A DNA stretch of 64,000 bases from Schmidtea polychroa (taxonomy: Eukaryota): the NCBI GenBank assembly GCA_044892525.1, contig CM097885.1:21020001-21084000 (forward strand), written 5' to 3'. The notes beneath the pieces were generated by a model, which was given only the letters and a program-made list of their open reading frames with translations, ran no database searches and was not told the DNA's origin. The position numbers and the translations under genes were made by a program. Below are positions 1 to 57,617 of the stretch, one piece after another; positions within the stretch are counted from its first letter, which is position 1; each line of letters opens with the position of its first letter.

Positions 1-1205
1 TGGGGGCACCAGTTTACTTGAAGTCTAACGCCGCATTCACTGCTAGAGTGACAATTCATTAATTTTTGCAAGTTAAAAACTGTGGTATAATGGAAATTAT
101 CACCGTCTTCCAACAAAAGTAAGTATAAGGGTTCACCACCTATAACTTTAGAGCGGTGAATAATATCTAAATATGGATGATGGGGAATATAGTTACTATC
201 ATCGTTTTCTATAGGCTTAGCTGGGTTTTTCCTATATGTCAATACATTAATTGATAAATTTAATTCTTTATTTTTCCTCTCGAATTTGGGGATATCACAT
301 AATTTCATGGGACAATCATTTATTGGGTCAAAATTTAACTCGTCAAGATAATTTTCATAGGAACTAACTCTATTTCTATTTATATGTACTACATTGCGTT
401 TTAACAGTGCTAAAATACTATAGATAAAGCACATATCGTCGGTGTTTTTGACGTTTACTATTGCTTTTTTAGAATTTAAAGCTGATGGGGTGGGGATATA
501 ACTATGTCCAGCTAGCCTATTCATAATCTTATACTTATTTATTATGAAGTCAATTTCTTTGATTTTAACAACCCGCCATCCGCTACCTAAATACGTAAAT
601 TTTTCAATTTTATTATTTAATTTAGTGATTCCATTAATCAAAAAATTTTCTGAAAAAACCTCTGCATTATTAGAGAAAAAATTATCTCTAATTTCCCCAT
701 CTTTCTCAAACTGGATGAGGATGGTGAACTGAATTTTGACTGTGCCCATTCCTTTCCTTTCGGAAATTAATTTATCAACAATCTTATTTGTGAGGGAAAT
801 TTCAACCAAATTATCCTTTTCAACGTCAAATCTTAAATTTTTTCGTGCCCCCTTAAAATCGATTTCAATTTCTGGTTCATCATCAAGATCGACCGAACCA
901 CCTACTTGATAAAACATGGGGTTATCCTTAATTTTAGTAATTTTTGAGGGAACACCAGACCCAATACTAACAGCAAGCCGTTTATTATTATTATTATTAG
1001 TATTTACAGAAGAACTTATCACAGAAGCAGTTATATTCACTGGAGAAGATATAATCACGGGCGAAGTATTTGTAGAGATATTTTTTGTTATAGGTCGCGA
1101 ATTATTATTTACATGTGTATTATTTACAGGTGTTTTACTTTTTATTTTATTAAAAAGTTTCTTTTTATTTATTGTATACTGGTTAAGATGAGTCTTATGG
1201 GTCAT
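1..1205 (-). CDS. Protein-primed DNA polymerase B, N-terminal region (ORF runs off the left edge, so it is absent from the ORF track)
   Basis: Manual translation is open from ATG 1205 to base 1: YLGSGWRVVKIKE...SYIPTPSALNSKKAIVNVKNTDDMCFIYSILALL...CDIPKFERKN...SINV...FHYTTVFNLQKL, matching Polinton pPolB N-terminal motifs. The true start may lie upstream or be spliced. Confidence 0.85.
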   Translation of the reverse strand, partial: MTHKTHLNQYTINKKKLFNKIKSKTPVNNTHVNNNSRPITKNISTNTSPVIISSPVNITASVISSSVNTNNNNNKRLAVSIGSGVPSKITKIKDNPMFYQVGGSVDLDDEPEIEIDFKGARKNLRFDVEKDNLVEISLTNKIVDKLISERKGMGTVKIQFTILIQFEKDGEIRDNFFSNNAEVFSENFLINGITKLNNKIEKFTYLGSGWRVVKIKEIDFIINKYKIMNRLAGHSYIPTPSALNSKKAIVNVKNTDDMCFIYSILALLKRNVVHINRNRVSSYENYLDELNFDPINDCPMKLCDIPKFERKNKELNLSINVLTYRKNPAKPIENDDSNYIPHHPYLDIIHRSKVIGGEPLYLLLLEDGDNFHYTTVFNLQKLMNCHSSSECGVRLQVNWCP

Positions 1206-1739
1206 ATAAAAACACTTATATTTTATATTTTGGGATGTCTCGCATATGGGACAAATATAGTAGTTGATGCCAATCTATGACCGTAGTATTTTTTCATGGT
1301 CTTATGGCATAAATTGGAATGGCCTCTTGAAGATTGGCAATATTTGCGATATAATTTACCTGTTAACGAGAAATTATAAAAGATGGTGAAAAATATTATA
1401 ATCAATTGTTATTAGTTAGTCTATTTTTATCTTTATAAAAAAAAAAAGATTAACTAATAACCATTAAAAATAATAATCTATAATATTCGTTTTTTTTTTT
1501 CAAAGATAGTTGTAAACTACTTTGAACATTAATATAAGAAGAATATTTATTATTATTTATATTATTATTATTAATATTATTATTATTATTATTACTATAG
1601 TAGGTAGATAGTAGCCCGCGGGAAAAATTACCCCCCCCCCCGGGGGGGTTGTTCCCAACTTTTTATTACGCAATTGTTCCCAACTCATTTTTTTGCTTTC
1701 AGGGATTTTTGGTCCAAATTTTTTTTTATCACACTTATT

Positions 1740-2300
1740 TCGATGGTCCTGGGATTTTCAATACAAAAAATTTTTTTCAATACAAAAAGCTGGTCTACAC
1801 TAAAAAAGCCAAGGAATTTTCAGACTATAGTGAGGGGGTCTCGATGGTCCTGGGATTTTCAATACAAAAAATTTTTTTCAATACAAAAATCCGACTACCA
1901 CTAAAAAAGCATAGAATTTTCAGACTATAGTGAGGGGGTCTCGATGGTCCTGGGATTTTCTATACAAAAATCCGACTACCAATAAAAAAGCATGGAATTT
2001 TCAGACTATAGTGAGGGGGTCTCGATATTCCTGGGATTTTCAATACAAAAATCCGACTACCACTAAAAAAGCATGGAATTTTCAGACTATAGTGAGGGGG
2101 TCTCGATGGTCCTAGGATTTTCAATACAAAAAAAATTTTTCAATACAAAAAGCTGGTCTACACTAAAAAAGCATGGTAATTTAAGGTCTCAGGATATTTT
2201 CAATACAAAAATCTGACTACCACTATAAAAGCCAAGGATTTTTTCAGACTATAGTGAGGTGAGTCTCCTTGGTCCTGAGAAATAGGTGGTCTACACTAAA
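1740..2300 (+). repeat. Subterminal tandem array, ~81-100-bp unit (CAGACTATAGTGAGGGGGTCTCGATGGTCCTGGGATTTTCAATACAAAAA...)
   Basis: Units start at 1821, 1921, 2002 and 2083. Mirrored at ~13130-13610; larger versions at ~44685-45755 and ~60230-61240. Confidence 0.9.
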
Positions 2301-2304
2301 AACG

Positions 2305-3010
2305 TGGTAAATTTTTCAATTAAAGTAAATAATGGTCCAAATTTTTAAATTAAAGTAAATTATGGTTCTAAAAATTAAATTACAGTAAATTATGGCTCAA
2401 ATTTTTCAATTAAAGTAAATAATGGTTCTAAAAAAATTAAATTACAGTAAATTATGGCTCAAATTTTTGAAATACAGTAAATTATGGTCAAAATTTTTGA
2501 ATTACAGTAAATAATGGTCCAAAAATTAAATTAAAGTAAATTATGGTTCTAAAAAATTAAATTAAAGTAAATTATGGCTCAAATTTTTCAATTACACTAA
2601 ATAATGGTTCTAAAAATTGAATTTAAGTAAATAATGGTCTAAAAAAAATTAAATGAAAGTTAATTAAGGTCCAAATTTTTAAATTAAAGTAAATAATGGC
2701 TCAAATTTTTCAATTACAGTAAATTATGGTCCTAAAAAATTAAATTACAGTGAATTATGGTTCTAAAAATTAAATTAAAGTAAATAATGGTCCAAATTTT
2801 TAAATTAAAGTAAATTAAGGTTCTAAAAATTAAATTAAAGTAATTATGGTCCAAATTTTTCAATTACAGTAAATAATGGTTCTAAAAAATTAAATTACAG
2901 TAAATTATGGTTCTAAAAATTAAATTAAAGTAAATAATGGTCCAAATTTTTAAATTAAAGTAAATTAAGGTTCTAAAAATTAAATTAAAGTAATTATGGT
3001 CCAAATTTTT
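2305..3010 (+). repeat. ~30-bp tandem array (AAATTTTTCAATTA[A/C]AGTAAAT[A/T]ATGGT[C/T]C)
   Basis: More than 20 degenerate units. Mirrored at ~12340-13125; also at ~45760-46410 and ~59815-60225. Confidence 0.9.
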
Positions 3011-4140
3011 AGGTACTAACAACTAGTTACCTAATACTAAGTACCTACAACCACCTAACAAGTACTAACAACCAAAAACAAGCAACCAAACAGGTACCAG
3101 ATACCACCTACTAAGTACCAACAACCAACTAGTTACCAGATACCTACAACTAGATACTAACAACTAGATACCAAGTACCTACAACCACCAACCCATTAAC
3201 TAGCTACCAAGTACTAACAACCAGGTCTCAAACAACTAAATACTAACAACCAGTTACCAACTACTAAGCATTAATTACCTACAACTAGTTACTAACAACT
3301 AGATACCAAGTACTTACAACCAACATCAACCAAGTACTAAGCATCATCAACTAACTACTAAGTACCTACAACCTACAACTAGATACTAACAACCAGTTAC
3401 CTGCTACCAAGTACCTACAACTGGTACTAACAACCAACCAACTAGGTACTAGATACCAACTACTTACAACCAACATCAACCAGGTACTAAGCATTATCAA
3501 CCAACTAAATACTAAGTACTAACAACCAACCGACTAGGTACTAGATACCAAGTACTCACAACCTACAACAACCAGGTACTAAGCATTAATTACCAACTAC
3601 TAAGTACCTACAACCTACAACTAGATACTAACAACCAGTTACCTGATACCAAATACTTACAACTAGATACCAAGTACTATCAACCAAAAACCACCAACCA
3701 ACTAGGTACTAGATACCAAGTACTCACAACCGACAACAACCAGTTACTAAGCATTATTAACCAACTACTAAGTACCTACAACCAACTAGCTACCATCTAC
3801 CATGTACTAACAACCGACAACAACCAGGTACTAAGCATTAATTACCTACAACTGGTACTAACAACCAACCAACTAGGTACTAGATACCAAGTACTCACAA
3901 GCGACAACAACCAAGTACTAAGCATTATTAACCAACTACTAAGTACCTACAACCAACTAACAACCACCTACCAAGTACTAACAACCAGTTACCAACTACT
4001 AAGCACCTACAACCACCTACAAAGTACATACAACCAACATCAACCAGGTACTAAGCATTATCAACCAAGTACTAACAACCAAGTAACTTACCTAGTACTA
4101 AGCACTGTCAACTAGATACCAAACACTTACAACCAGATGA
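3011..4140 (+). repeat. Strand-biased modular repeat (A/C-rich on +), built from words such as CAACTAGATAC, CAAGTACT, AACAACC, ACTAAGC
   Basis: Visible directly. Mirrored at ~10695-12060; also at ~46750-48355 and ~58320-59470. Confidence 0.85.
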
Positions 4141-4478
4141 CCACATGAAATTATTGGTTAAATATGAAAATAAGGGTTATATTTAGTTGTTAAGTAAATT
4201 ATGGTGTAAAATTAAGTAATAAAGCATAAATAGGTAAATTAAGGATAAGTAAATTAAAGTTAAAAAATTAAATTAAAGTTAATTAAGGTCCAAATTTTAA
4301 AAATAAGTAATCAATGTTCTAAAAAATTAAATTAAAGTTAAATAAGTAAATTAAAGTAATAATTTTTAAATAAGTAATGTAATATGAAAATTAAAGTAAG
4401 ATTTTTAAATTTATTATCAAAAGATTGAATAACCACCAACTTTTTTGAGAAATGTAATTTTTAATGAAAATTTAAATG

Positions 4479-4534
<56 letters not shown>

Positions 4535-5934
4535 TTAATAATAATTATAATAATAATTAAACAGTTACCAACAATCGGTTACTGATTATTTTTAACTAGG
4601 TGCTAACAAATACTTTCAACATGATACCACGTACTAACTAACTCTCAAACAACCACATACTTACAACTAACTACTTACAATCAACTAAATATTCTTCATT
4701 GTATTTTATGAAATGATTTTTAAATTAATTTTTTATCTATCTTCAAAAATATATTTAATTACAATCAGTAGAAAAACCTTTTCAAATTTAACAAAAAATG
4801 TTGATTTTCATCAAAAAACCACAACTCAACCACTTTAAAACACCACGTGAAATTCAAAATAATTACAATGAAAGACTAATGAATTCTAATTCACAAAACA
4901 TTCTTCTTTTAATTGATAACTTATTATTGCAATGTAAAAATCGCATTCAATAAATACTTATTGTTGATCAGTTTTATTATATATACTCTGAGTTTATCCG
5001 ACAGGATGTTTTGACCCCCTAAGGGTACTGGTCGTAAGGGTACTGGTCGTAAGGGTATTGGTAACACTCAACCCCCCACCTACTCATTAATTAGTTACCA
5101 TGTACTAACAACTAGGTTTCAAACAACTAAATACTAAACACTAACAACCAACAACAACCAGGTACTAAGCATTATCAACCTACAACTATATAACAACAAT
5201 CAGTATACAACACTGTACCAACTACCAAATACAAGAAACCAACAACTTAGTACCAACAATCAACTAACAACACATAAAAATAATAGCAATTAAATAAAAA
5301 AATTATTCTTCATCGCATACACTATTTTCTTATCAAAATCTAAAAAGTCAACCAACTACTTACAACCAACAACTATGTACTAACAAATTGATCTTTAAAA
5401 GCAAATACTCATCACTTGAAAAAAATTAGATGAAAAATTAATTGAACTCAAGGCACTTTTAAGATATTTGAACTCAAGGCATCAATAACTTGGTAAAAAT
5501 TGATTAAATTATTGTAAAAATTTAAATTATTCAAAATATACTAAATTAAAAAAATATAATTAATGGACAAGAAAGAACTTTAAATTCTAGTCATTGATCA
5601 TTCAAGTTAATATGAATCAACTAAGATAATAAATTAATAAGAATTTTGAAATAAGATCTAGTAGATAATTGATTTAGATTGAATAAATTAATTTAAATAA
5701 AATTAAATTTAATTATTTTTGTAAAAGTAATACATGTACTCAAATTGATTGACTGATTTCTCAATATATTCAAAAAAATCAGTATAAATTCATTACAATT
5801 ATCAAAGTCAGCAATCTACAATAAAAATAATTATCATTAAATTCCAAAAGAGACTAGATAACTAATGATAACATCTAACAAACCAGTAAATTCATTTAAA
5901 TGACAATAATTGGTATATCCAAGTGAATTCTCCA

Positions 5935-6430
5935 ATAAAATCATCTAAAAAGAATCATTTTCCCCTAAATATATCAATATTTAAAGATTGGTATTTTAAT
6001 GATAAGTACTTGTTAAAGATCATATATTCACCTCAAACTAACAAGATTCCTTAAAATCCCCTTAAATGACTACATTTCTATCCTTAATTCATATTATTAC
6101 AAATATCATCTAAAAAGCATCAAATTTCATTGAAATAACACTATCTTTAAAGATTGATATTTTAATGATAAGTACCCTTAAAAGACTATATATTCACCTC
6201 AAACTAACAAGATTCCTTAAAATCTCTTAAATGACTATATTTCTACCCTTAATCCATATTATTACAAATATTTCACTAAAATCATCTAAAAAGCATCAAA
6301 TTTCCCTGAAATAACTATCTTTAAAGATTAGTATTTTATCGATAAATATCCTTAAAAGGTTATATATTTACCTCAGACTAATAAGATTGCTTAAAATCCC
6401 CTTTAAATGACTTTAATTCCTATTATCATG
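5935..6430 (+). repeat. ~170-bp tandem repeat x3 within the palindrome arm
   Basis: ATCATCTAAAAAG recurs at ~5940, ~6105 and ~6281; mirrored at ~8410-8895. Confidence 0.75.
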
Positions 6431-7539
6431 AATATTTCCCTATAAAACATGTAAAATAATTTGGTCATTAACCCTAGATAATTGATAAAATCTAATGATA
6501 AAACCGGTTATAATTAACTTTTTGTTAATCACTGTACTCGAAATTTAAAATAAATATAACTGACTAGGTCCCATTAAAAGATTAAATTTATCCATTCAAT
6601 AAAATATATTTCTTCAAATGATCATTTTACCGATATTCAACCGATTTAATTACTAATTAAAATCAATCGATAGATTTCTTTCAATAAAGATCAATTTTAT
6701 TTAGTCGATGTTTTAAGTCCATATTTCTAAACTTTTATCATTTTTGTAAATTTCTATTATTTTTGTGGATTTCTAACATTTTTGCAAATTTGATGTTTAT
6801 TGAATGAATATTTAATAATTTAATGCTAATTCTAAGATAAATTTAATTAATTTCTTGATAATTGGATGTATTTTTATTGACTTGTTTTTTTTAATTTTAA
6901 ATAAAAATTATTTTCAATGAGGTTAATAATTAGAGATTTTACAATAATGAAGTGATATGATAAATTTTTATGAGGATATTGAATAATTTTCTAAGAATTT
7001 CATGTTGACTGATAAATTTAATTGATAAATTTAATTAATTTCTTGATAATTAGTTGTATTTTATTGAATAGTTTCTAAATAAAAATTAATTTCATTGACA
7101 ATTAGGTTAATAATTAAGTGATTTTTGATGATAACTTTGTAATGTATTTGACTAAATAATTTTTTCAATAATTTACTCATTGATGAACTTTAAAAAACAT
7201 AAGCTAAGAAACCAGTTAACTTTAAATTTACATGAAAATGATTGTAGGATATACAGAAATTTAGTTTGCTTGAAAATGATTGGTTGAATCGATGAAGAAT
7301 TATGATCAAACAATATATATCATCTCCAGTATTTGATGGTAAATATTTGTAGAAAATATTGATTTTTGATCTTTTAGTGGGCTCTTATTATTTAGCTTCT
7401 AAATTATTTCAATGGAAGAATATTTGGTGTCTATAACAATTCATTTGTTTTTTTGAAGAATTCTTTAAGGATTTTAAGAGGATTGACTGAATTAAAGGAG
7501 GATTCAAGTGGGTAGAATTGAAGGATATATTTGGTTAGA

Positions 7540-7860
7540 TGTTTAAAGAGGTAGAAATATTTAATGAGAGATCGATTAAGATGGGAAAATATGATCTTTT
7601 AAGGGAGATATAGTCGGTTAGATTTAATGAAGGATGGGTTAAGATGGAAATAGATCATTGTAAGGGAGATATAGTCGATTGACTTTAATAAGAAATCGAT
7701 TAAGATGGGAATATATGATCTTTTGAGGGGATATAGTCGGTTAGATTTAATGAGAGATCAGATAAGGTGGGAATATATTATTGTAAGGGAGATATAGTCG
7801 GTTGCTTTTAATGAGGGAAGGGTTTCGATGGGAATATATGATTTTTTAAGGGTGATGTTG
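7540..7860 (+). repeat. ~60-bp purine-rich tandem repeat (TTTAATGAGAGATCG...GGGAATATATGATC...GATATAGTCGG)
   Basis: About 5 degenerate units; homologues at ~50950-51230 (-) and ~55030-55320 (+). Confidence 0.75.
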
Positions 7861-8090
7861 GTAAAATATCAATGTTTTTTAAGGAAATTGCAATACATTA
7901 GTCAGTTATGAATCAATAATAATTATATCGTTTTATTAGGTTGTGATTAATCCATTGTATATTAATTTAGATTTATGGATTATTAAGTAGGGATAATGAG
8001 CGATTTACTTGGTTTTGACAATGAAAACTTTACAGATAATTGGGATTGATATCAACTTTAAATTATTTTTATCTTTATTTAGACGGAGAA

Positions 8091-10296
8091 TGACAAAAGT
8101 TTAGAAATATGGACTTAAAACATCGATTAAATAAAATTGATCTTTATTGAAAGAAATCTATCGATTGATTTTAATTAGTAATTAAATCGGTTGAATATCG
8201 GTAAAATGATCATTTGAAGAAATATATTTTATTGAATGGATAAATTTAATCTTTTAATGGGACCTAGTCAGTTATATTTATTTTAAATTTCGAGTACAGT
8301 GATTAACAAAAAGTTAATTATAACCGGTTTTATCATTAGATTTTATCAATTATTTAGGGTTAATGACCAAATTATTTTACATGTTTTATAGGGAAATATT
8401 CATGATAATAGGAATTAAAGTCATTTAAAGGGGATTTTAAGCAATCTTATTAGTCTGAGGTAAATATATAACCTTTTAAGGATATTTATCGATAAAATAC
8501 TAATCTTTAAAGATAGTTATTTCAGGGAAATTTGATGCTTTTTAGATGATTTTAGTGAAATATTTGTAATAATATGGATTAAGGGTAGAAATATAGTCAT
8601 TTAAGAGATTTTAAGGAATCTTGTTAGTTTGAGGTGAATATATAGTCTTTTAAGGGTACTTATCATTAAAATATCAATCTTTAAAGATAGTGTTATTTCA
8701 ATGAAATTTGATGCTTTTTAGATGATATTTGTAATAATATGAATTAAGGATAGAAATGTAGTCATTTAAGGGGATTTTAAGGAATCTTGTTAGTTTGAGG
8801 TGAATATATGATCTTTAACAAGTACTTATCATTAAAATACCAATCTTTAAATATTGATATATTTAGGGGAAAATGATTCTTTTTAGATGATTTTATTGGA
8901 GAATTCACTTGGATATACCAATTATTGTCATTTAAATGAATTTACTGGTTTGTTAGATGTTATCATTAGTTATCTAGTCTCTTTTGGAATTTAATGATAA
9001 TTATTTTTATTGTAGATTGCTGACTTTGATAATTGTAATGAATTTATACTGATTTTTTTGAATATATTGAGAAATCAGTCAATCAATTTGAGTACATGTA
9101 TTACTTTTACAAAAATAATTAAATTTAATTTTATTTAAATTAATTTATTCAATCTAAATCAATTATCTACTAGATCTTATTTCAAAATTCTTATTAATTT
9201 ATTATCTTAGTTGATTCATATTAACTTGAATGATCAATGACTAGAATTTAAAGTTCTTTCTTGTCCATTAATTATATTTTTTTAATTTAGTATATTTTGA
9301 ATAATTTAAATTTTTACAATAATTTAATCAATTTTTACCAAGTTATTGATGCCTTGAGTTCAAATATCTTAAAAGTGCCTTGAGTTCAATTAATTTTTCA
9401 TCTAATTTTTTTCAAGTGATGAGTATTTGCTTTTAAAGATCAATTTGTTAGTACATAGTTGTTGGTTGTAAGTAGTTGGTTGACTTTTTAGATTTTGATA
9501 AGAAAATAGTGTATGCGATGAAGAATAATTTTTTTATTTAATTGCTATTATTTTTATGTGTTGTTAGTTGATTGTTGGTACTAAGTTGTTGGTTTCTTGT
9601 ATTTGGTAGTTGGTACAGTGTTGTATACTGATTGTTGTTATATAGTTGTAGGTTGATAATGCTTAGTACCTGGTTGTTGTTGGTTGTTAGTGTTTAGTAT
9701 TTAGTTGTTTGAAACCTAGTTGTTAGTACATGGTAACTAATTAATGAGTAGGTGGGGGGTTGAGTGTTACCAATACCCTTACGACCAGTACCCTTACGAC
9801 CAGTACCCTTAGGGGGTCAAAACATCCTGTCGGATAAACTCAGAGTATATATAATAAAACTGATCAACAATAAGTATTTATTGAATGCGATTTTTACATT
9901 GCAATAATAAGTTATCAATTAAAAGAAGAATGTTTTGTGAATTAGAATTCATTAGTCTTTCATTGTAATTATTTTGAATTTCACGTGGTGTTTTAAAGTG
10001 GTTGAGTTGTGGTTTTTTGATGAAAATCAACATTTTTTGTTAAATTTGAAAAGGTTTTTCTACTGATTGTAATTAAATATATTTTTGAAGATAGATAAAA
10101 AATTAATTTAAAAATCATTTCATAAAATACAATGAAGAATATTTAGTTGATTGTAAGTAGTTAGTTGTAAGTATGTGGTTGTTTGAGAGTTAGTTAGTAC
10201 GTGGTATCATGTTGAAAGTATTTGTTAGCACCTAGTTAAAAATAATCAGTAACCGATTGTTGGTAACTGTTTAATTATTATTATAATTATTATTAA

Positions 10297-10355
<59 letters not shown>

Positions 10356-13300
10356 CATTTAAATTTTCATTAAAAATTACATTTCTCAAAAAAGTTGGTG
10401 GTTATTCAATCTTTTGATAATAAATTTAAAAATCTTACTTTAATTTTCATATTACATTACTTATTTAAAAATTATTACTTTAATTTACTTATTTAACTTT
10501 AATTTAATTTTTTAGAACATTGATTACTTATTTTTAAAATTTGGACCTTAATTAACTTTAATTTAATTTTTTAACTTTAATTTACTTATCCTTAATTTAC
10601 CTATTTATGCTTTATTACTTAATTTTACACCATAATTTACTTAACAACTAAATATAACCCTTATTTTCATATTTAACCAATAATTTCATGTGGTCATCTG
10701 GTTGTAAGTGTTTGGTATCTAGTTGACAGTGCTTAGTACTAGGTAAGTTACTTGGTTGTTAGTACTTGGTTGATAATGCTTAGTACCTGGTTGATGTTGG
10801 TTGTATGTACTTTGTAGGTGGTTGTAGGTGCTTAGTAGTTGGTAACTGGTTGTTAGTACTTGGTAGGTGGTTGTTAGTTGGTTGTAGGTACTTAGTAGTT
10901 GGTTAATAATGCTTAGTACTTGGTTGTTGTCGCTTGTGAGTACTTGGTATCTAGTACCTAGTTGGTTGGTTGTTAGTACCAGTTGTAGGTAATTAATGCT
11001 TAGTACCTGGTTGTTGTCGGTTGTTAGTACATGGTAGATGGTAGCTAGTTGGTTGTAGGTACTTAGTAGTTGGTTAATAATGCTTAGTAACTGGTTGTTG
11101 TCGGTTGTGAGTACTTGGTATCTAGTACCTAGTTGGTTGGTGGTTTTTGGTTGATAGTACTTGGTATCTAGTTGTAAGTATTTGGTATCAGGTAACTGGT
11201 TGTTAGTATCTAGTTGTAGGTTGTAGGTACTTAGTAGTTGGTAATTAATGCTTAGTACCTGGTTGTTGTAGGTTGTGAGTACTTGGTATCTAGTACCTAG
11301 TCGGTTGGTTGTTAGTACTTAGTATTTAGTTGGTTGATAATGCTTAGTACCTGGTTGATGCTGGTTGTAAGTAGTTGGTATCTAGTACCTAGTTGGTTGG
11401 TTGTTAGTACCAGTTGTAGGTACTTGGTAGCAGGTAACTGGTTGTTAGTATCTAGTTGTAGGTTGTAGGTACTTAGTAGTTAGTTGATGATGCTTAGTAC
11501 TTGGTTGATGTTGGTTGTAAGTACTTGGTATCTAGTTGTTAGTAACTAGTTGTAGGTAATTAATGCTTAGTAGTTGGTAACTGGTTGTTAGTATTTAGTT
11601 GTTTGAGACCTGGTTGTTAGTACTTGGTAGCTAGTTAATGGGTTGGTGGTTGTAGGTACTTGGTATCTAGTTGTTAGTATCTAGTTGTAGGTATCTGGTA
11701 ACTAGTTGGTTGTTGGTACTTAGTAGGTGGTATCTGGTACCTGTTTGGTTGCTTGTTTTTGGTTGTTAGTACTTGTTAGGTGGTTGTAGGTACTTAGTAT
11801 CAGGTAACTAGTTGTTAGTACCTAGTTGTAGATACTTGGTATCTGGTAATTTGTTGTAGGTACTTGGTTGTTTTTGGTTGTTAGTACTTAGTAGTTGGTT
11901 GTAGGTACTTGGTAGGTGGTAGTTAGTTGTTAGCTAATTGTTGTGGGTTGTTAGTACTTGGTATCAGGTAACTGGTTGTTAGTAACTAGTTGTAGGTATC
12001 TGGTTGTAACTACATGTTCGTAAGTTACTGGTTGTTGGTACTAAGTTGTTGGTTTGTTGTTGAATTATTATTAAAATTTGTCTTTGAAAAATTATTTCAT
12101 AAAAATTTCCATTAAAAATTACCATTAAAAAATATTTCATAAAAATTTCAATTAAAAATTAACTTAAAAAATTATTTCATAAAAATTTTAATTAAAAAAT
12201 TTCAATTCTCAAACACCTATTATTTCAACTTTTTGTTAATAAATTTAAAAATCTTACTTTAATTTACTTATTACATTACTTATTTAAAAATTATTACTAT
12301 AATTTACTTATTTAAAATTTTTTACCATTGATTACTTAATTTAAAAATTTGGACCTTAATTAACTTTAATTTAATTTTTTAGAACCTTAATTTACTTTAA
12401 TTTAAAAATTTGGACCATTATTTACTGTAATTTAATTTTTAGAACCTTAATTTACTTTAATTGAAAAATTTGGACCATTATTTACTTTAATTGAAAAATT
12501 TGAACCATAATTTACTTATTTAGACCATAATTTACTTTAATTTAATTTTTTAGAACCATTATTTACTGTAATTGAAAAATTTGGACCATAATTACTTTAA
12601 TTTAATTTTTAGAACCTTAATTTACTTTAATTTAAAAATTTGGACCATTATTTACTTTAATTTAATTTTTAGAACCATAATTTACTGTAATTTAATTTTT
12701 TAGGACCATAATTTACTGTAATTGAAAAATTTGAGCCATTATTTACTTTAATTTAAAAATTTGGACCTTAATTAACTTTCATTTAATTTTTTTTAGACCA
12801 TTATTTACTTAAATTCAATTTTTAGAACCATTATTTAGTGTAATTGAAAAATTTGAGCCATAATTTACTTTAATTTAATTTTTTAGAACCATAATTTACT
12901 TTAATTTAATTTTTGGACCATTATTTACTGTAATTCAAAAATTTTGACCATAATTTACTGTAATTCAAAAATTTGAGCCATAATTTACTGTAATTTAATT
13001 TTTTAGAACCATTATTTACTTTAATTGAAAAATTTGAGCCATAATTTACTGTAATTTAATTTTTAGAACCATAATTTACTTAAATTTAAAAATTTGGACC
13101 ATTATTTACTTTAATTGAAAAATTTACCACGTTTTTAGTGTAGACCACCTATTTCTCAGGACCAAGGAGACTCACCTCACTATAGTCTGAAAAAATCCTT
13201 GGCTTTTTTAGTGGTAGTCAGATTTTTGTATTGAAAATATCCTGAGACCTTAAATTACCATGCTTTTTTAGTGTAGACCAGCTTTTTGTATTGAAAAATT

Positions 13301-13739
13301 TTTTTTGTATTGAAAATCCTAGGACCATCGAGACCCCCTCACTATAGTCGGAAAATTCCATGCTTTTTTAGTGGTAGTCGGATTTTTGTATTGAAAATCC
13401 CAGGACCATCGAGACCCCCTCACTATAGTCTGAAAATTCCATGCTTTTTTATTGGTAGTCGGATTTTTGTATAGAAAATCCCAGGACCATCGAGACCCCC
13501 TCACTATAGTCTGAAAATTCTATGCTTTTTTAGTGGTAGTCGGATTTTTGTATTGAAAAAAATTTTTTGTATTGAAAATCCCAGGACCATCGAGACCCCC
13601 TCACTATAGTGTGATAAAAAAAAATTTGGACCAAAAATCCCTGAAAGCAAAAAAATGAGTTGGGAACAATTGCGTAATAAAAAGTTGGGAACAACAGGGG
13701 GGGGGGGTAATTGTTCCCGCGGGCTACTATCTACCTACT
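8091..13739 (-). repeat. Right arm of the element A inverted repeat
   Basis: Reverse complement of 1599..6740. The spacer 6741-8090 is homologous to ~54260-55610 of element B. Confidence 0.9.
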
Positions 13740-14225
<486 letters not shown>

Positions 14226-14592
14226 TATTATTATTATTATTTTTATTATTTCTAAACTTAAATTATAACTTTCTCAAGAATATTTAAAAATTTTCTTCTA
14301 CATTTTCATCGTATTAAATTTTCATCATCATTTCATATAAATTTTCATAATTTCATATAATTTGTTCAGGATTTTCAAATAAAATTGTTCAGGATTTTTC
14401 AAATAAATTTTCATCATCTGTTCATATAAATTTTCTTCATATAAATTTTCTTCATATAAATTTAAATTGTCAATTACAAAAATTTACAGCATTTTTTTTT
14501 AAAAAATAATTTAAAGAAAGTTATAATTTAAGTTTATAAATAATTTATAAATAATTATGATTAATAAAAAATATTATTCATGAAAAAAAAAA

Positions 14593-15323
14593 CTAACATT
14601 TAGACTCTGAATCAGAGTCTGTTTCGTCCTCAGTGAGGATATTTCCAAAGACCTCCCTAATAGTGGCATCTCCAATAAAAGTTGAGGCATAATCTGCTTC
14701 CTCCCCAATAGCATTGGGGGCATCTCCAATAGGTGCATCTCCAATAAAAGTTGAGGCATAATCCGCTACCTCCTCAATAGCAGTGGGGGCATCAATTAGT
14801 ATTGTTTCATCAATAGGTGCAGCATAAATTGGAGCATCATCCTCAGAGAGGGCATACCGAATAGGGCCATCATTCAAAACATTTGAAGCTTCTAAATCAT
14901 TTTTAAAATTACATATAAAAATAATAAAAACTTACGAGTATTTTCTATCATCGCATGTTCGATGAAAAACTCATTGTCGATGTGATTAGGAATCATTTGA
15001 CTATGGCCTAAAAAAGGTTTTTAATACAATAATAATAATAATAATAATAATAAATTACTTGATAAATCATCATCATCCTCACTAATGACTATTGTATCGT
15101 CATTGTCGCTAATAATTATGGGATCTTCATTATCGCTAATAATGATAGGTTCTAAAGAAAATTAATTTAATAAAAATTAAAATAATAAATTTACCGAATA
15201 TATTATCCACATTTAAGATAGAATCGTTCTCCGTCACTTCATACCAATCGAAAACATCTAAAATAAAATAAAATAAAATATAATAAAATTACCAGTTGAC
15301 AAAATATTGTTTCGGTTAGCCAT
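14593..15323 (-). CDS. Five-exon acidic protein (~185 aa) with tandem SIM-like motifs; Polinton accessory gene
   Basis: Exons 15323-15293, 15257-15195, 15151-15059, 15007-14936, 14891-14593. GT-AG introns of 35, 43, 51 and 44 nt give one open frame: MANRNNILSTDVFDWYE...EPIIISDNEDPIIISDNDDTIVISEDDDD...SESKC*. Confidence 0.75.
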
Positions 15324-15379
15324 TTTGATTAATTTGAAAAAAATTGTGAAAGGTTTGAGATTTGTCAATGTTTATAACG

Positions 15380-15700
15380 AAAAAAATTTTTTTGAAAAAG
15401 TTTTTGCATTAGCAGTTATCTACTAAAAATACTTAATAATACTTAATAATACTTAGTTGAATTTTTAGGACTACTTTAGATGGTCGTCTAAAAAATTTTG
15501 AAAAAAATGTTTTTGAAAAAATTTTTGCATTAGCAGTTATCTACTAGCCAAAATACTTCGTCGAATTTCTTGGACTATTTCAGATGGTCGTCTAAAAAAT
15601 TTTGAAAAATTTTTTTTGAAATAATTTTTGCATTAGCAGTTATACACTAGTCGAAATACTTAGTTGAATTTTTAGGACTACTAAAGATGGTCATCTCAAT
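15380..15700. repeat. ~100-120-bp tandem repeat x3 upstream of the five-exon gene
   Basis: TTTTTGCATTAGCAGTTAT...GATGGTC recurs at ~15400, ~15522 and ~15625. Confidence 0.8.
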
Positions 15701-15936
15701 TTTTTAATTAAATAAGCCTATTTACAACAGCAATATACTGTAGTAAATAGGCTTAAAATTTATCTGTGTGATGAACTGGTAAACGGCGGTAGTTACTAAA
15801 CTAACCTCACCTTAAGTCAGTCTTTTTTACTCCCGCTGTTGACCATTTGACTACTAAGCAGTTACTGTTAACCAGTTATTATTCAGTTATATAGAAATTT
15901 ACCAATAGCACTGCTACCCAGGAATACAAATATAAG

Positions 15937-16230
15937 TTACCACAGGGGTAACTGGCTTGTGGTAGTTAAAAAACAGCCAATAGCCAGTTAACTGAATGCA
16001 AAAATGCATTGAAAACACTATTACCACTGGGTTAATTGGATTATGGTAGTTAAAAAACATCCAATAGCCAGTTAACCGAATGCATTGAAAACACTATTAC
16101 CACGGGGTTAATTGGCTTATGGTGGTTAAAAAACATCCAATAGCCAGTTAACCGAATGCATTGAAAACACTATTACCACGGGGTTAATTGGCTTATGGTG
16201 GTTAAAAAACATCCAATAGCCATCCAATAG
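15937..16230. repeat. ~76-bp tandem repeat x4
   Basis: TTACCAC..GG at 15937, 16021, 16097 and 16173. Confidence 0.85.
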
Positions 16231-16369
16231 CACTCGAGCTGTACATGCACGAGTCATTATTTTTCTTTATCTGACATGCACTGATCATGCACTGTCTTTG
16301 TTATTAATCATTTTCTTTATGCAATGATCACGTATTTAATAATAAAACTTTGTAAATAATAATATTATT

Positions 16370-16409
<40 letters not shown>

Positions 16410-16470
16410 TTAATAATAATAATAATAATATTAATAATAATACTAATAATAATAATAAAAATAATAATAA

Positions 16471-16594
<124 letters not shown>

Positions 16595-16625
16595 CCATGA
16601 CAACTTTTTGTGTTTCAATATACAT

Positions 16626-17849
16626 TTATACCAACACTGTTCTATTTGCAGTAATTTGAACTTCATTTTCAAATACTCCATATATTATAACATGTACCGG
16701 TTCAGTAATAGCTTTTGCAAACTTTATATCCAGTCGTAAATTTCCATTTTGTGGTAATTGACTTTGATTTAAATCAAAATCAGGGGCTAAAACAAATGTA
16801 AAAAATGGATATTTGCTTTTAAAATCTTCTAGAGTAATTCCACAATTCAAATTTTTATCTAAATAACCCAGATTTCTAACAATACTCTGCATATATGTCG
16901 CACAGTAATTGTCATTCTCGAAATCTTGAATATATGTTTCTCTATAATCAGTATTTTTCGACAAAGTCAATGAAGTAACATTAAAGTTTTTGAAAATTGA
17001 GCTGGAAGCAGTATAAGATCCATTATATTGTGCTTCACTTTGAAATGTTATCAGAATAAAATTAGGCATTCTTCTGTCACCAAATATTTGTTCTTTATAG
17101 AATGATGAAGCACCTTTAGCAATAGCGAATTGTACAATTTCCTTTGTCTTTAATGGATAAATTGCATGTTTTGAATTAAGACCCAATTGATGACCAGCTA
17201 ATACTGAGGGGTCCACTCGAACTCTTCTCACCAATAATTTTGCATCGACTAATTGACATATTGGTGCACCAGTTGCACTAGTAAGAGATAATGCAGAATC
17301 GGACCTTTTCAATCTAATGTGTACATTAACTCCCGGTAGTAAATATTTCGGTTGATCCATAAAATCAAGTTGTAACGATGAGCACATGGCGAAAACCTTT
17401 GAACCTTTAACCCACTTTTTTCTTTCATCATCTGTTGCTGCATAACCCATAGGTGTAAGACAGGTATTTTTAGTATCGGAATTGTAATTTAAAATAGTTT
17501 CTATCAAAGCCTTGTGAATGAATGTATTATTTCCACCCTCAATCTTGATATTATTAAATCCCAACACTGCATCTTTAAACAGAGTATGAAACATGAAATT
17601 GTTCGGTATTACATCTGCATTGGCATCCAAAACTTTTCTATCTTTATCTACAACCTTGATCTTAACAGTCAATAAAGTATCGTTCAAATCTAAATATTCA
17701 GTTTGCGAACCATTAATATAAAACTCTATATCATTTCTACTATCGGTAATTGAATTCATAGGAAAAACTTCCTCAAATGCCCCAAATTCTATTACAGCCT
17801 GGGGCGATGGTCTATCAAATATACATAATTCAGATTTACCACAAATCAT
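16626..17849 (-). CDS. Polinton major capsid protein (double jelly-roll, PY)
   Basis: 407 aa. N-terminal CGKSELCIFDRPSPQ...IEFYINGSQTEYLDLNDTLL and C-terminal GNLRLDIKFAK...IIYGVFENEVQI match Maverick MCPs. Confidence 0.9.
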   Translation of the reverse strand: MICGKSELCIFDRPSPQAVIEFGAFEEVFPMNSITDSRNDIEFYINGSQTEYLDLNDTLLTVKIKVVDKDRKVLDANADVIPNNFMFHTLFKDAVLGFNNIKIEGGNNTFIHKALIETILNYNSDTKNTCLTPMGYAATDDERKKWVKGSKVFAMCSSLQLDFMDQPKYLLPGVNVHIRLKRSDSALSLTSATGAPICQLVDAKLLVRRVRVDPSVLAGHQLGLNSKHAIYPLKTKEIVQFAIAKGASSFYKEQIFGDRRMPNFILITFQSEAQYNGSYTASSSIFKNFNVTSLTLSKNTDYRETYIQDFENDNYCATYMQSIVRNLGYLDKNLNCGITLEDFKSKYPFFTFVLAPDFDLNQSQLPQNGNLRLDIKFAKAITEPVHVIIYGVFENEVQITANRTVLV

Positions 17850-18214
17850 TTTGCAAATATAGTTCCATGTCCTTTCATTCGTTTGTTTATACGTGATATT
17901 CCATGTCTTTTACGTTTTGGAACAGGAGCTGGAGCTGGAGATTTTTCTTTTTGAAACATACCTGCAACCCCGGGTAAAACTTTACCTAATTCAGCTAAAG
18001 CATTTGTTTTTAGAGATGGTAATATTTTCTGTTCATTCATAATAACATCTTTTGCAGTTTTCATACCAAAACTACCAATACGTTTAAGAATAGGCAATGC
18101 AAATCTACCAATTGTTCTCAACCATCCCGATCCGTACTGTTTACCAATAAAATATGGTAATTCGCCACCAGATTGGCTACCGCTATACATACTAATAATA
18201 TCAGAATTTGCCAT
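17846..18214 (-). CDS. Polinton small virion protein (PM-like)
   Basis: QSGG and QYGSG motifs, amphipathic WLRTIGRFALPILK, basic C-terminus; lies between mCP and MCP. Confidence 0.7.
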   Translation of the reverse strand: MANSDIISMYSGSQSGGELPYFIGKQYGSGWLRTIGRFALPILKRIGSFGMKTAKDVIMNEQKILPSLKTNALAELGKVLPGVAGMFQKEKSPAPAPVPKRKRHGISRINKRMKGHGTIFAK

Positions 18215-19134
18215 CTACTTTACGAAAATGTAATGTCAAATGAGTTTTTGAACCTTTTGGAAAGTTTATAAGTTTTCCACTATCATCACGAATATTTATT
18301 TCTATATTGTTTATACATGAACTTGCTATTGGTAAATACATGGGATTATCGATATTTATATTGACAACTTCATCATGTTCATATTTTCCAATCCATACCG
18401 ATTTCAAAAGAGGAACACTGGAATCACCAACAATTATGGGTTCGATAATGTTAGTATATATGAACATTTGTTGATGATGTTCTAGTATTCTTGGTTTGCG
18501 TATACCAGTCGATTTTTCTCGATATTTTTGCCTATCTAATCCAAGTGAATTTGCCAAATTTTTATCAAATGTAACTTCGCAAATATCCTCATTCAAACTG
18601 AAGGTAAACATCAAATCTTTCACAATTTCCAAATTTTTAAATATGTGTGAACAATTGAACTTTAAATATTTAAGTAAATCATCAAGTTTATCAAAATATA
18701 ATTCATCAGCAAAGGTAAATGATTCTTCAACTTCATCATTATACGACACAGATATTTTGATTTCTTCTTTCATTACACTGTTTGCTTCAAATAGATTAAA
18801 ACGTAATAAATACTCGGTCTCCGTAACAATATTTTTCAACTTATTGCAACCCATTCGTTTGGCATCTTCAATAATTACTAATAATAAAGATACCGCTACA
18901 TGTTTTCACAATATTCCTTTTGAAATCAATCTTACATTGACTATAAAATGGGAATGTGTTGTACACGAATGTAAAATCTTGCAGTGCAACTTCCCAGTCA
19001 CCATTTAAAGAAATCGGATTCTGGAGATTGACCATAAATTTACTGGCTTGATTGTCTGGATGAATTAATGGGCAACTATTGCTCGGTAAAATAGTATAAA
19101 AAATCACTTTACTAGGTCTTTTGCTGATATCCAT
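18201..19134 (-). CDS. Polinton minor capsid protein (penton-like, PX), split over two frames by a probable intron or frameshift
   Basis: N-terminal FYTILPSNS...PISLNGDWEVAL; C-terminal MFIYTNIIEPIIVGDSSVPLLK...NIEINIRDDSGKLINF...LTLHFRK. Confidence 0.85.
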
Positions 19135-19733
19135 GACGGGTTTTGATAACCATGCCATTTGACATAGTATTGTTTATCCTTACCTACCTTTTTAGTTTTC
19201 AATATTTTTTGAATTCTAAATACTTTTGGAGGAGGAATGACTTGTAATTCCTGCTCATAAAATTTCCCTTGTACAATATTATTATCACTGTCTTTGATGA
19301 CATACATTACAGGATTCTGTTTAGTATTTATTTTTGAAATTACAAAGACTTCATCACTCCAATTTGTATCGAAATTTTTAATAAATGGTGATGCACTAAT
19401 TTTACTAATTCTAACATGGTCACCGACTTTATATTTAGGTTTTGCAATTTTTACAGATTTCTTAGAATAGAATGTTTTTGATGTAATATCAACCGGTCTC
19501 AATCCATCCAGTCCTCGATGTGATGAATGATTATAACTTGTTATTATTTTCGGTAAAGCATTTACCCATTTTTTATTACCTTGATGCACGAACAATTTCT
19601 TTAATCGATCTCTCAATGTTCGATTAAATCTTTCAACGTGGGCAGCTTTGTATTGAGAATGTACCGAGTAGTGATTTATTTTCAGTTTATCGAGGATTTG
19701 CTTAACTTTACTATTGTAGAATTCTTTACCTAA

Positions 19734-19798
<65 letters not shown>

Positions 19799-20186
19799 CT
19801 AAATCTGTTTGCAAGTTATTAGGATGTCCATCTTTAAATAAAATATTAATTGCCTTGGACATTTCTTCTGCAGATTTTGCCTTGACCGGTATTGCTCGTG
19901 CAAACCTGCTGTATACATTAATACATGTTAAAATATATTTATTCCCATTGTTAATTTTCGAATAGGGTATCATCTCCATCAAATCCATTTGCCATAAATC
20001 GTCAATACCAAATGTTTTATACGCTCTTGTTGGAAATCTTTTCCGCATTGGTTTGTTCAAACTGTACGCAAGCTGATCTGATAACCACTTCTGGGTTTCT
20101 TTTTTCGAATTCGGAACTCTTTTGTTTAATTTTGCCACTCCACCGAAACCGGCTTCGTCTTCTGGGTTCATCCAAATCTTCTCCAT
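19104..20186 (-). CDS. Polinton retroviral-like DDE integrase with C-terminal chromodomain; one 69-nt intron (19730-19798)
   Basis: Motifs WQMDL, QTDLG^KEF and HVERFNRTL; chromodomain YYVKWHGY..PSWI. The poly-Ile run in the ORF track is an (ATT)n tract bounded by GT...TAG. Confidence 0.92.
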
Positions 20187-20244
20187 TACAGCAAGAAGAT
20201 TTAAAATTAAATTTTATGTCAGGCAATGAAGGATTAGCACCCAT
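20017..20244 (-). CDS. Small ORF overlapping the integrase start; possible N-myristoylated protein
   Basis: Starts 3 nt after the upstream stop; MGANPS fits the MGxxxS consensus; contains SSCC. Confidence 0.4.
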   Translation of the reverse strand: MGANPSLPDIKFNFKSSCCNGEDLDEPRRRSRFRWSGKIKQKSSEFEKRNPEVVIRSACVQFEQTNAEKISNKSV

Positions 20245-20247
20245 TGT

Positions 20248-20769: not shown

Positions 20770-20787
20770 TATTATTCATAGAGGTTT

Positions 20788-21414: not shown

Positions 21415-21513
21415 TTCAAAAATTTTATAAATGTGTATTTGTTTATATTCGATGATTTAATGAACTCGTACTCAATTTGTATATAAAGACTAATTTTCAT
21501 AAATGATTTAATA

Positions 21514-21951: not shown

Positions 21952-22025
21952 TTGGTTAATTTCTAATTGGTTAATGATTGTTTTAAACAATATGTTTTCT
22001 GTTTAGAAATCATTTATTCAACAAA

Positions 22026-48651: not shown

Positions 48652-48687
<36 letters not shown>

Positions 48688-57600: not shown

Positions 57601-57617
57601 CTGTTGAATTATTATTA

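Follow-up and report, generated by a model that had tools for sequence, protein, structure and literature searches.

Element A, a gene-less palindrome of 12,141 bp at positions 1599–13739 of the analysed 64,000-nucleotide stretch of the Schmidtea polychroa genome (the window), is best explained as a non-autonomous derivative of a Polinton/Maverick that would be moved in trans and whose palindrome would have formed by copy-back before integration. We place the probability of this reading, which is drawn from sequence comparison, at roughly 60%. The palindrome itself would probably be the template-switch product of protein-primed replication.

Anatomy of element A and its surroundings

At its left end element A reads tactat followed by AGTAGGTAGATAGTAGCCCGCGGG, starting at 1599, and at its right end CCCGCGGGCTACTATCTACCTACT, finishing at 13739 and followed by tactat. 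It thus has AGTAG...CTACT termini within a perfect 6-bp TSD, TACTAT (Table 1), and the family terminus sequence at its ends is AGTAGGTAG. The 18-mer terminus had four matches in the window and none in 100 shuffles. The subterminal palindrome, whose stems covary between subfamilies, is well formed in other copies (DNA fold z about -5) and partly decayed in element A (z -1.2); given these decayed hairpins, element A itself may no longer be mobile.

Table 1. Positions of the features of element A, its host Polinton and element B in the window
Feature	Position	Strand	Remarks
TSD TACTAT, left copy, element A	1593..1598	.	
Left 18-bp terminus, element A	1599..1616	+	AGTAGGTAGATAGTAGCC; identical to E3 terminus; invariant across family
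Subterminal palindrome, element A	1620..1656	.	stem, C(n)G(n), matching stem
Left arm, element A	1599..6742	+	5,144 bp
81/100-bp repeats, left arm	1740-2276		
30-bp array, left arm	2318-3010		
CA-rich arrays, left arm	3063-4143		
(AAT)26, left arm	4480-4557		
166-bp repeats, left arm	5939-6412		
19-bp tandem array, element A	6720..6791	.	straddles the join between 6742 and 6743; template T ends, mirrored arm starts
Unique centre, element A	6743..8088	-	1,346 bp; template T continued, read inward from right end
Right arm, element A	8089..13739	-	5,651 bp; mirrors left arm
Right 18-bp terminus, element A	13722..13739	-	
TSD TACTAT, right copy, element A	13740..13745	.	
Host Polinton, left part	1..1598	-	N-terminal part of pPolB gene
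Host pPolB ORF	3-1205	-	runs off window
Host Polinton, right part	13746..24931	-	
Host 407-aa ORF	16626-17849		capsid-like candidate
Host rve+chromo integrase	19104-20186		
Host A32-type ATPase	20788-21414		
Host right terminus	24911-24931		then TSD CATGGT at 24932-24937
Element B, second family member	44576..61376	.	16,801 bp
TSD TGCATA, element B	44570-44575 and 61377-61382		

From the terminus inward, each arm runs through 81/100-bp, 30-bp, CA-rich (14–242-bp), (AAT)n, 166-bp and 19-bp units, and the first ~1.4 kb of the left arm is homologous to the subterminal region of a gene-bearing Polinton. The inverted pair 4480–6742/8089–10351 is 100% identical over 2,263 nt; the pairs 3010–4557/10277–11824 and 1817–2440/12994–13617 are 99% identical and 2431–2927/12508–13004 is 98% identical. 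In a gapped comparison the arms differed by 0–1.2% substitutions per 500 bp and by three array indels of 91, 80 and 519 bp, the right arm being changed by +519, +80 and -91 bp relative to the left. GC skew is mirror-imaged as well (-0.57 at 3001–4000, +0.58 at 11001–12000).

Only six stop-to-stop frames of at least 70 aa occur in element A, each confined to a terminus or to the CA-rich array, and none of the six gave a domain-level Pfam match. With no such ORF outside low-complexity arrays and termini, no domain-level match and no pPolB or integrase gene of its own, element A is not an autonomous Polinton, and that assignment was rejected.

Element A is nested in a 17.5-kb host Polinton with its own TSD (CATGGT), ~690-bp TIRs (96.7%) and termini AGTAGATGGATTGGAGCCCGC. 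The left end of this host falls 4,721 bases ahead of the window start and its right end at 24931. The arms of element B differ by 2–10%, the innermost ~900 bp excepted, and its two subterminal hairpins belong to different subfamily types, which identifies it as a hybrid. An earlier note on the window had described 12.1 kb without a credible gene, two ~5-kb inverted arms of ordered repeat arrays, AGTAG...CTACT ends with the TSD TACTAT, a second member with a different TSD and insertion inside a Polinton. Each of these points was borne out, with arms of 5.1 and 5.7 kb, both ends read directly, and a host that has TIRs, a TSD, an integrase and an ATPase.

A genome-wide family with Polinton termini

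In the 781-Mb genome the 18-bp terminus had 1,359 forward and 1,363 reverse matches, and a reversed-control 18-mer had none. TSDs were perfect 6-bp repeats in 9 of 11 sampled pairs and agreed at five of six positions in the remaining two; AGTAG...CTACT was present at 30/30 termini read, and AGTAG starts were also found in the host Polinton and in two further families, R and Q, described below. The Polinton integration signature that the earlier note had read from the window holds outside it as well. Two termini within the first 30 loci (L002/L003 and L029/L030) had duplicated or inverted flanks, so that some stretches of the assembly are duplicated. The first 100 termini listed include 33 adjacent pairs, whose median length was 16.2 kb; 26 of these pairs measured 10–19 kb, so that "Polinton-sized", the wording of that note, is a fair description. 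Gene-less lengths did not exceed the gene-bearing length, nested composites excepted.

Twelve elements were read, chosen by order and size within the initial 72 Mb of a single contig; in this non-random sample ten copies were gene-less. E3, a young gene-bearing Polinton of 16,575 bp with 1.1-kb TIRs, matches element A in the 18-bp terminus and over ~1.4 kb of the subterminal region. It carries genes for pPolB, an A32-type ATPase and an rve+chromo integrase. Its 1,374-aa ORF contains exonuclease and polymerase motifs and shares 55% identity with a PF03175-positive PolB, and at least 34 intact pPolB copies were found at 98–99% identity.

The Polinton/Maverick superfamily was reportedly defined by Kapitonov & Jurka (2006) and Pritham et al. 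(2007). Tlr elements of Tetrahymena, relatives of Mavericks, carry 19-mers in tandem within their long TIRs and have genes between sub-kilobase TIRs; to our knowledge they are not whole-element palindromes. The present family resembles Tlr in being of Maverick type with long TIRs of short tandem repeats. It resembles Polintons in general in its 5'-AG...CT-3' ends within TIRs, its 6-bp TSD, a length no greater than that of the gene-bearing form, and termini in common with E3, whose genes include pPolB and an rve integrase. A published restatement of typical Polinton/Maverick features names a 6-bp TSD together with a long TIR (584 bp; PMC3014272). TIRs in this superfamily usually measure a few hundred bp to ~1 kb, whereas those described here reach 5–8 kb and make nearly the whole element palindromic. 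In further contrast, the body does not correspond to a Polinton with internal deletions but to a dedicated non-coding template; the join points vary among copies, and the genome has ~1,360 termini per orientation.

Drosophila Foldback (FB) has a 9-bp TSD and Galileo a 7-bp TSD, and full Galileo copies carry a P-type transposase. The very long inverted arms of tandem subrepeats, the near absence of coding sequence and the structural variability from copy to copy all recall FB and Galileo, the latter a foldback-like element of the P superfamily (PMC3573991). Element A might accordingly be a Foldback-type cut-and-paste DDE transposon unrelated to Polintons, in which the 6-bp TSD and AG...CT ends are coincidental. 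This is very improbable, since a gene-bearing Polinton has the same 18-bp terminus and adjoining ~1.4 kb, 9/11 pairs carry a 6-bp TSD, and no transposase ORF was present in any of the ten gene-less copies read. Among the 12 elements read, none combined a transposase with these termini and a lack of Polinton genes. Identity with Galileo or the P superfamily was rejected on the 6-bp TSD and on the full copy E3, which encodes Polinton genes and no P transposase; identity with Drosophila Foldback was rejected on the TSD (6 versus 9 bp), although the long subrepeat arms do fit.

One template, variable joins and hybrids

The gene-less copies read have one linear template, T, in common, in the layout T(1..x) plus the reverse complement of T(1..y), with x and y varying. 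The body of element A is T(1..6490) placed head-to-head with the reverse complement of T(1..5144). Elements B, E1, E2 and E4–E8 match 11,200–12,141 of its 12,141 bases, and E3 matches only 3,509, at the ends. The layout fits A, B, E1, E5, E6, E7, E9 and E10, the last being a palindrome that has lost part of one arm by deletion, and E8 when its nested element is included. Arm length and middle size (bp) are 5,144/1,346 in A, 5,023/1,578 in E9, 6,623/1,402 in E1, 7,402/993 in E7, 8,446/360 in B, ~1,400/5,186 in E5 and 2,522/5,665 in E6.

The unique centre of element A is present in both arms of E7 and E1, and many loci, spread over four large contigs, have it as inverted pairs separated by ~4.0 kb, which indicates that the palindromic forms are themselves copied. 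The E7 arms show 0.0% substitutions over 7.4 kb. In five of six elements the two arms group as identical or sister sequences, judged from a shared 540-bp segment in both arms; B is the exception, and its placement is ambiguous. Palindromic chimeras are a recognised long-read artefact, and the flanks at L002/L003 and L029/L030 would suit an origin of the palindrome in fold-back reads. Such an origin is scarcely credible for a layout that recurs at many loci on four large contigs, in elements (A, B, E2, E5–E10 and others) that end in unique flanks with the same 6-bp duplication; the arms also differ by indels and a few substitutions, unlike those of a fold-back chimera.

E8, a composite of 26.8 kb with a matching TSD (ATTAAT), bears on how the arms arise. 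Over 5.4 kb its left part is a mirror copy of its right end (99.2%), and this copy takes in the terminal ~1 kb of a nested 13-kb element, at whose inner end no TSD was found. Because the mirrored arm includes part of the nested element, arms are formed when one end is duplicated in inverted orientation. Two hybrids bear on the timing: E2 consists of a T arm and the left 7.4 kb of the gene-bearing Polinton within a perfect TSD (TTTATA), and B combines arms of two subfamilies within its own perfect TSD. Perfect TSDs on such hybrids fit formation before integration.

The two further Polinton-type families of this genome, R and Q, are also whole-element palindromes and fit the layout End(1..x) plus the reverse complement of End(1..y). 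Family R measures 13,233 bp and has different AGTAG termini, the TSD CACCTA, arms at 99.8% and no ORF of at least 150 aa. Family Q (~13 kb; 154/150 termini; perfect TSDs in 9/10) carries an intact 870-aa pPolB (PF03175, E 3e-31) in each arm, reading outward, and corresponds exactly to a mirrored polymerase end of a Polinton.

These structures could instead have grown in place. A non-autonomous Polinton with ~1.4-kb TIRs, similar to E5, would have suffered breaks after integration that were repaired from the other arm, extending the inverted repeat inward, or one long palindrome would have lost its centre by deletions, and the products would have transposed later. Short-armed E5 (~1.4 kb) and E6 (2.5 kb) do coexist with long-armed forms, element A and E5 have the same inner end x and different y, and E10 shows that arm deletions occur. 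Centres of long palindromes are unstable. Deletions across the centre of one old long palindrome could yield the same set of structures, and repair from the other arm would also retain the TSD; the join in element A lies within an AT-rich 19-bp array, in which any microhomology would be masked. We nevertheless judge growth in place unlikely, as the hybrids E2 and B with perfect TSDs would need 7–8-kb conversion tracts from a donor elsewhere, three separate lineages (T, R and Q) are whole-element palindromic in one genome, and Q mirrors the polymerase end of a Polinton exactly.

Copy-back replication and its implications

On the reading of copy-back before integration, element A retains the cis parts alone, namely the 18-bp terminus, the subterminal palindrome with iteron-like half-sites and the repeat arrays. 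Its common termini and TSDs suggest that it would borrow pPolB, integrase and capsid, and the family's retroviral-type integrase, given in trans, would insert it and generate the 6-bp duplication. The joins would arise during an extrachromosomal stage, on a linear copy that the protein-primed polymerase replicates end-in. Departure from one template, either by this enzyme or through recombination of co-replicating molecules, would be followed by copying back along another end-in strand, giving a molecule with a valid terminus at each end.

Palindromic or one-ended defective genomes are found in adenovirus incomplete particles, and the yeast killer plasmid pGKL1 has palindromic or hairpin derivatives. 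For phi29, subgenomic and in-vitro-evolved molecules are documented; a review describes template switching by the polymerase and subgenomic molecules of 1–8 kb that stem mainly from one genome end (PMC4974454). Such molecules are reportedly palindromic (Esteban 1997; Murthy 1998). The families described here have the same arrangement, End(1..x) plus the reverse complement of End(1..y) with the same origin at both ends, and family Q mirrors precisely the polymerase-bearing end. Those defective genomes were observed as free molecules of viruses or plasmids, either in culture or in vitro, whereas the present ones are chromosomally integrated with TSDs, inherited, and present in hundreds or thousands of copies.

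More tentatively, T, R and the polymerase-only Q might be copy-back defective genomes of still-replicating Maverick viruses that have become fixed in the chromosomes, and might constitute the first sequence-level record of linear end-primed Polinton replication in animal cells. Their arms might be kept identical by displaced-strand snap-back and repair, and they perhaps act as defective interfering genomes that are inherited and draw on the polymerase, integrase and capsid in competition with the gene-bearing virus. Our literature search found no paper describing such palindromic gene-less Polinton derivatives.

It is doubtful that, besides mobility, the palindromes are kept for a host or anti-helper role, whether as very long hairpin RNA that, if transcribed, would direct small-RNA silencing of Polinton ends, or as DNA that, like a defective interfering genome, competes with the gene-bearing elements for the polymerase, integrase and capsid. 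The ~1.4 kb that the arms have in common with gene-bearing Polinton ends, the excess of gene-less over gene-bearing copies (10/12 in the non-random sample) and lengths no greater than the gene-bearing length, nested composites apart, would all suit such a role, but parasitism alone accounts for the high copy number.

As this case shows, non-autonomous relatives can exceed gene-bearing Mavericks in number, and repeat annotation that expects TIRs of at most 1 kb around genes will misfile palindromic elements. The self-synthesising model of Polintons/Mavericks (excision, protein-primed linear copying and integration) has drawn its support mainly from gene content. One end joined to its own reverse complement, with x and y free to differ, is a typical error of end-primed, strand-displacing polymerases and is unexpected under simple cut-and-paste. 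The hundreds to thousands of such palindromes in this genome, in three lineages and with clean 6-bp duplications, offer a natural, testable record of the replication step, for which young targets are plentiful in the polymerase-only palindrome Q and the gene-less palindromes T and R.

Element A, its Polinton host and the second family member

The earlier note had described a palindromic element of about 12.1 kb with inverted arms, AGTAG...CTACT ends, the target-site duplication (TSD) TACTAT and no credible gene, and this description of A was confirmed by end reads, arm alignment and a frame scan. The left end reads AGTAGGTAGATAGTAGCC and the right end GGCTACTATCTACCTACT, and TACTAT directly abuts the element on both outer sides. 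The inverted arms, which consist of tandem arrays in a fixed order with strand skew mirrored between them, contain one 2,263-nt block at 100% identity and other blocks at 98–99%. In a gapped comparison, substitutions between the arms amounted to 0–1.2% per 500 bp, with array indels of 91, 80 and 519 bp. The centre is single-copy within A, and the join falls inside an AT-rich array of 19-bp units, which makes any microhomology there ambiguous. Only six stop-to-stop frames of at least 70 aa were present, all at the termini or within a CA-rich array, and Pfam analysis of the six gave no domain-level match. The 199-aa stop-free frame across the CA-rich array is Q/L/N/T-rich with heptad-like repeats; scored as a bZIP_1 protein, it lay just above the whole-sequence cut-off (E 7e-7) with no stretch passing, and it was rejected as compositional because it has no counterpart in B (the second family member) or in E1 and E7, two of ten further genomic elements (E1–E10) with A's 18-bp terminus. 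Rfam scans of the whole window (E ≤ 0.1), of A's left arm and centre (E ≤ 5), and of the left halves of E7, E1, E9 and E4 (E ≤ 1) revealed no meaningful match, the sole matches being those of the terminal hairpin to unrelated hairpin models. Four public runs placed on window positions 900–13900 gave only short repeat-derived contigs of very high word depth and without usable ends, and an empty-site joint was absent among the joints listed.

The proposal that A is nested inside a Polinton was borne out by an inverted repeat of 687 bp (96.7%) around it, termini AGTAGATGGATTGGAGCCCGC, the TSD CATGGT, and genes for an rve+chromo integrase and an A32-type ATPase. This host is about 17.5 kb long when A is subtracted. 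It also encodes a 407-aa ORF, which an Atlas look-up associated with double-jelly-roll-like clusters (feature scores 0.97–0.98) and for which Pfam gave no double-jelly-roll match; its nearness to these clusters is taken as a lead only. The host is 72–81% identical at the nucleotide level to E3, a gene-bearing Polinton with A's terminus, and its own termini occur 43 and 41 times in the genome at up to one mismatch; it is a distinct and older lineage. A Ty3/Gypsy-type retrotransposon (zinc-knuckle gag, reverse transcriptase, RNase H and integrase) adjoins its right end.

A second family member with a different TSD had also been reported, and B indeed carries TGCATA. A Penelope-like element (RVT_1 and GIY-YIG) has its reverse-transcriptase gene split by B, at a point that reads as a YVDD motif on the minus strand, and parts of B's flanks form a mutual inverted repeat at 99%. 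The two arms of B belong to different subfamilies, 2–10% apart; the hairpin stems differ at its two ends, and the TSD is perfect.

Locations and dimensions of the elements and features described (arm and middle in bp)
Feature	Location	Length	TSD	Arm	Middle
A	window 1599–13739	12,141 bp	TACTAT	5,144	1,346
A centre	window 6743–8088	1,346 bp
199-aa frame of A	window 3516–4115 (+), 10719–11318 (-)
Host inverted repeat	4.7 kb before window start; window 24176–24852	687 bp
Ty3/Gypsy-type retrotransposon	window 26451–30640 (+)
Penelope-like element	window 43159–44575, 61377–62869
Inverted repeat flanking B	window 43159–44146, 61881–62869
B	window 44576–61376		TGCATA	8,446	360
E1				6,623	1,402
E2	L033+L034, G000:C1:4717073-4732320		TTTATA
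E3		16,575 bp
E3 TATA-binding-protein-domain ORF	L035:2514-2990 (-)	158 aa
E3 pX-like ORF	L035:3859-4182 (+)	108 aa
E3 polymerase ORF	L036:2344-6465 (+)	1,374 aa
E4	L037–L039, G000:C1:487852-515000
R in E4	E4 positions 3241–16473	13,233 bp	CACCTA
E5				~1,400	5,186
E6				2,522	5,665
E7				7,402	993
E8	G000:C1:68848-95655	26,808 bp	ATTAAT
Q in E8	L046–L048, E8 positions 8794–21837
Q polymerase ORF	L047:459-3068 (-)	870 aa
Q, second copy	L086+L087, G000:C1:23046104-23058938	12,835 bp
E9				5,023	1,578
E10				palindrome, internal deletion in one arm

Shared termini, a common template and variable joins

To the 18-bp terminus of A corresponded 1,359 forward and 1,363 reverse sites in the 781-Mb assembly, compared with none for the reversed control. 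Among the first 100 termini listed, 33 adjacent plus/minus pairs had a median length of 16.2 kb, with 26 of them in the 10–19 kb range; another 34 termini had no partner. These counts and lengths agree with the suggestion of a Polinton-sized family with shared ends. Other copies carry the 6-bp TSD whose absence the earlier note would have held against its reading: it was perfect in nine of the 11 pairs with flanks read and matched at five of six positions in the other two. In two cases termini share flanking sequence: L002 and L003, 16 kb apart, have the same flank, and L029 and L030, 214 kb apart, have reverse-complementary ones. Around these family members the sequence has either been duplicated or inverted locally, or been duplicated in the assembly. 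Adjoining the invariant 18-mer is a palindrome in which two complementary stems enclose a C(n)G(n) tract; its 3' half-site recurs just inward. The stems vary by subfamily yet remain complementary (TACGGCAGCA/TGCTGCCGTA, TGGAACAATT/AATTGTTCCA, GGGAACA/TGTTCCC, TGCAGCA/TGCTGCA, TGCAACA/TGTTGCA). On DNA folding, good copies of this palindrome gave z of about -5, and the two present in A, which are decayed, gave -1.2 and -1.6. In public collections the 18-mer was found at one viral_contigs and 12 metagenome_contigs loci; none of the 13 had the subterminal hairpin or a similar context, and they are therefore regarded as chance matches.

Twelve elements with A's terminus (A, B and E1–E10) were read, E4 without its final 190 bp. 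They were selected for their order and size within the initial 72 Mb of a single contig and so are not a random sample. One was gene-bearing (E3), one was a chimera (E2) and ten were gene-less. All ten gene-less copies have 11,200–12,141 of A's 12,141 bases in common, indicating one linear non-coding template, T. Because the single-copy centre of A occurs in both arms of E7 and of E1, every copy can be given the formula T(1..x) + revcomp T(1..y); x and y vary, and the head-to-head joins thus fall at variable points. The main alternative, of lower probability, is that the palindrome grew or decayed in place after integration; in its favour are A and E5, which share x and differ in y, and the arm deletion evident in E10. 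A small tree built on 540 bp shared by the arms showed the two arms as identical or sister in five of the six elements that have this segment twice, and did not resolve those of B. The arms of E7 showed 0.0% substitutions across 7.4 kb; BLAST identity between elements was 82–92% with gaps counted. The palindromic forms were themselves amplified: on four large contigs, many loci contain two inverted copies of A's centre spaced by about 4.0 kb (40 scored of 3,490 first-look candidates).

Two composite elements bear on the timing of the joins. E8 contains, in its right half, a nested 13-kb copy of Q, another palindromic family. Its left 5.4 kb mirrors its right end at 99.2%, taking in roughly 1 kb from the end of Q, and then switches to inner T sequence in inverted orientation. 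Starting at its right end, E8 has the structure W(1..~20.4 kb) + revcomp W(1..~5.1 kb), W being a T arm already containing Q. Since the mirror includes part of Q, the arm was duplicated after Q insertion, and the TSDs of the composite still match; this is evidence for an origin of arms through duplication of a single end. E2 combines T(1..~7,845), one T-type arm with the centre, and the leftmost 7.4 kb of the gene-bearing Polinton, which holds the ATPase, the integrase and other ORFs, and its TSD is perfect. For hybrids with perfect TSDs, such as E2 and B, joins made before integration fit better than exchange between chromosomal loci.

A gene-bearing Polinton and two further palindromic lineages

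E3, the putative helper, has the same terminus as A, TIRs of 1.1 kb and a complete set of genes. Among these are genes for an A32-type ATPase, an rve+chromo integrase and an adenovirus-pX-like peptide, the last passing the Pfam cut-off for the pX/mu core family (PF05829, E 2e-6). A TATA-binding-protein domain (PF00352, E 3.4e-16) is encoded by an ORF located after the left TIR and before the ATPase gene. The 1,374-aa ORF of E3 contains exonuclease and polymerase motifs characteristic of B-family polymerases that use protein priming. Pfam matched it to no PolB family, PF03175 included, a PDB sequence search gave no match, and PHROGs gave only a weak endonuclease-VII match; it was named pPolB because of these motifs and its 55% identity to the PF03175-positive polymerase of Q. 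A weak endonuclease-VII/HNH-like insert (PF02945) precedes the exonuclease II motif in both polymerases (E 8e-4 in E3, 2.5e-4 in Q). At least 34 intact copies of the E3 polymerase are present in the genome at 98–99% identity. E3 and A have only the terminal ~1.4 kb per side in common (3,509 of A's 12,141 bases).

Including T, the palindromic form occurs in three lineages. Q, an element of about 13 kb with AGTAG ends, has termini AGTAGTGAATAGTAAGG counted 154 and 150 times in the genome and perfect 6-bp TSDs in nine of ten pairs. Each arm carries an outward-reading polymerase ORF (PF03175, E 3e-31), and upstream of it a 247–249-aa ORF matching the N-terminal part of the E3 polymerase; all 52 polymerase matches scored were intact, at 99–100%. 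A full read of the second Q copy revealed arms at 99.7% and no integrase or capsid ORF. Q looks like a polymerase-only mini-Polinton, the form that would be expected if a polymerase-bearing Polinton end had been mirrored. R, nested in the T-type element E4, has 20/20 inverted termini AGTAGTATGATTGGTCACCG with 82 and 88 copies in the genome. Its arms are 96% identical in the outer part and 99.8% over the inner 4.8 kb, its centre is 638 bp, and it contains no ORF of at least 150 aa.

Possible origin of the palindromes

The gene-less copies are non-autonomous elements with Polinton-type ends and TSDs. In the features tested, A agrees with a non-autonomous Polinton and disagrees with an autonomous one, and its TSD differs in length from those of Foldback (9 bp) and Galileo (7 bp). 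A is very probably a non-autonomous Polinton derivative. Palindromic products are known for phi29, adenovirus and pGKL. A phi29 review describes template switching and 1–8-kb subgenomic molecules arising mainly from one end (PMC4974454), and according to another paper phi29 polymerase switches onto the displaced strand (PMC4176320). Polinton derivatives that are palindromic over their whole length were not found described in the literature searched, which included passages of PMC6431247, PMC3014272 and two preprints; one of these preprints mentions only 52-nt terminal palindromes, in virophages.

Collectively, these observations support the interpretation in the earlier note of non-autonomous satellites, which may borrow Polinton functions. 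We favour a compound explanation of A, a non-autonomous Polinton/Maverick derivative with a palindrome formed by template switching or recombination during replication, with a probability of roughly 0.6; copy-back by the polymerase in particular is rated as somewhat less likely than not. The joins would form on a free, linear, replicating molecule, either by template switching of an end-primed polymerase or by recombination among co-replicating molecules, and integrase, polymerase and perhaps capsid may be provided to these elements in trans.
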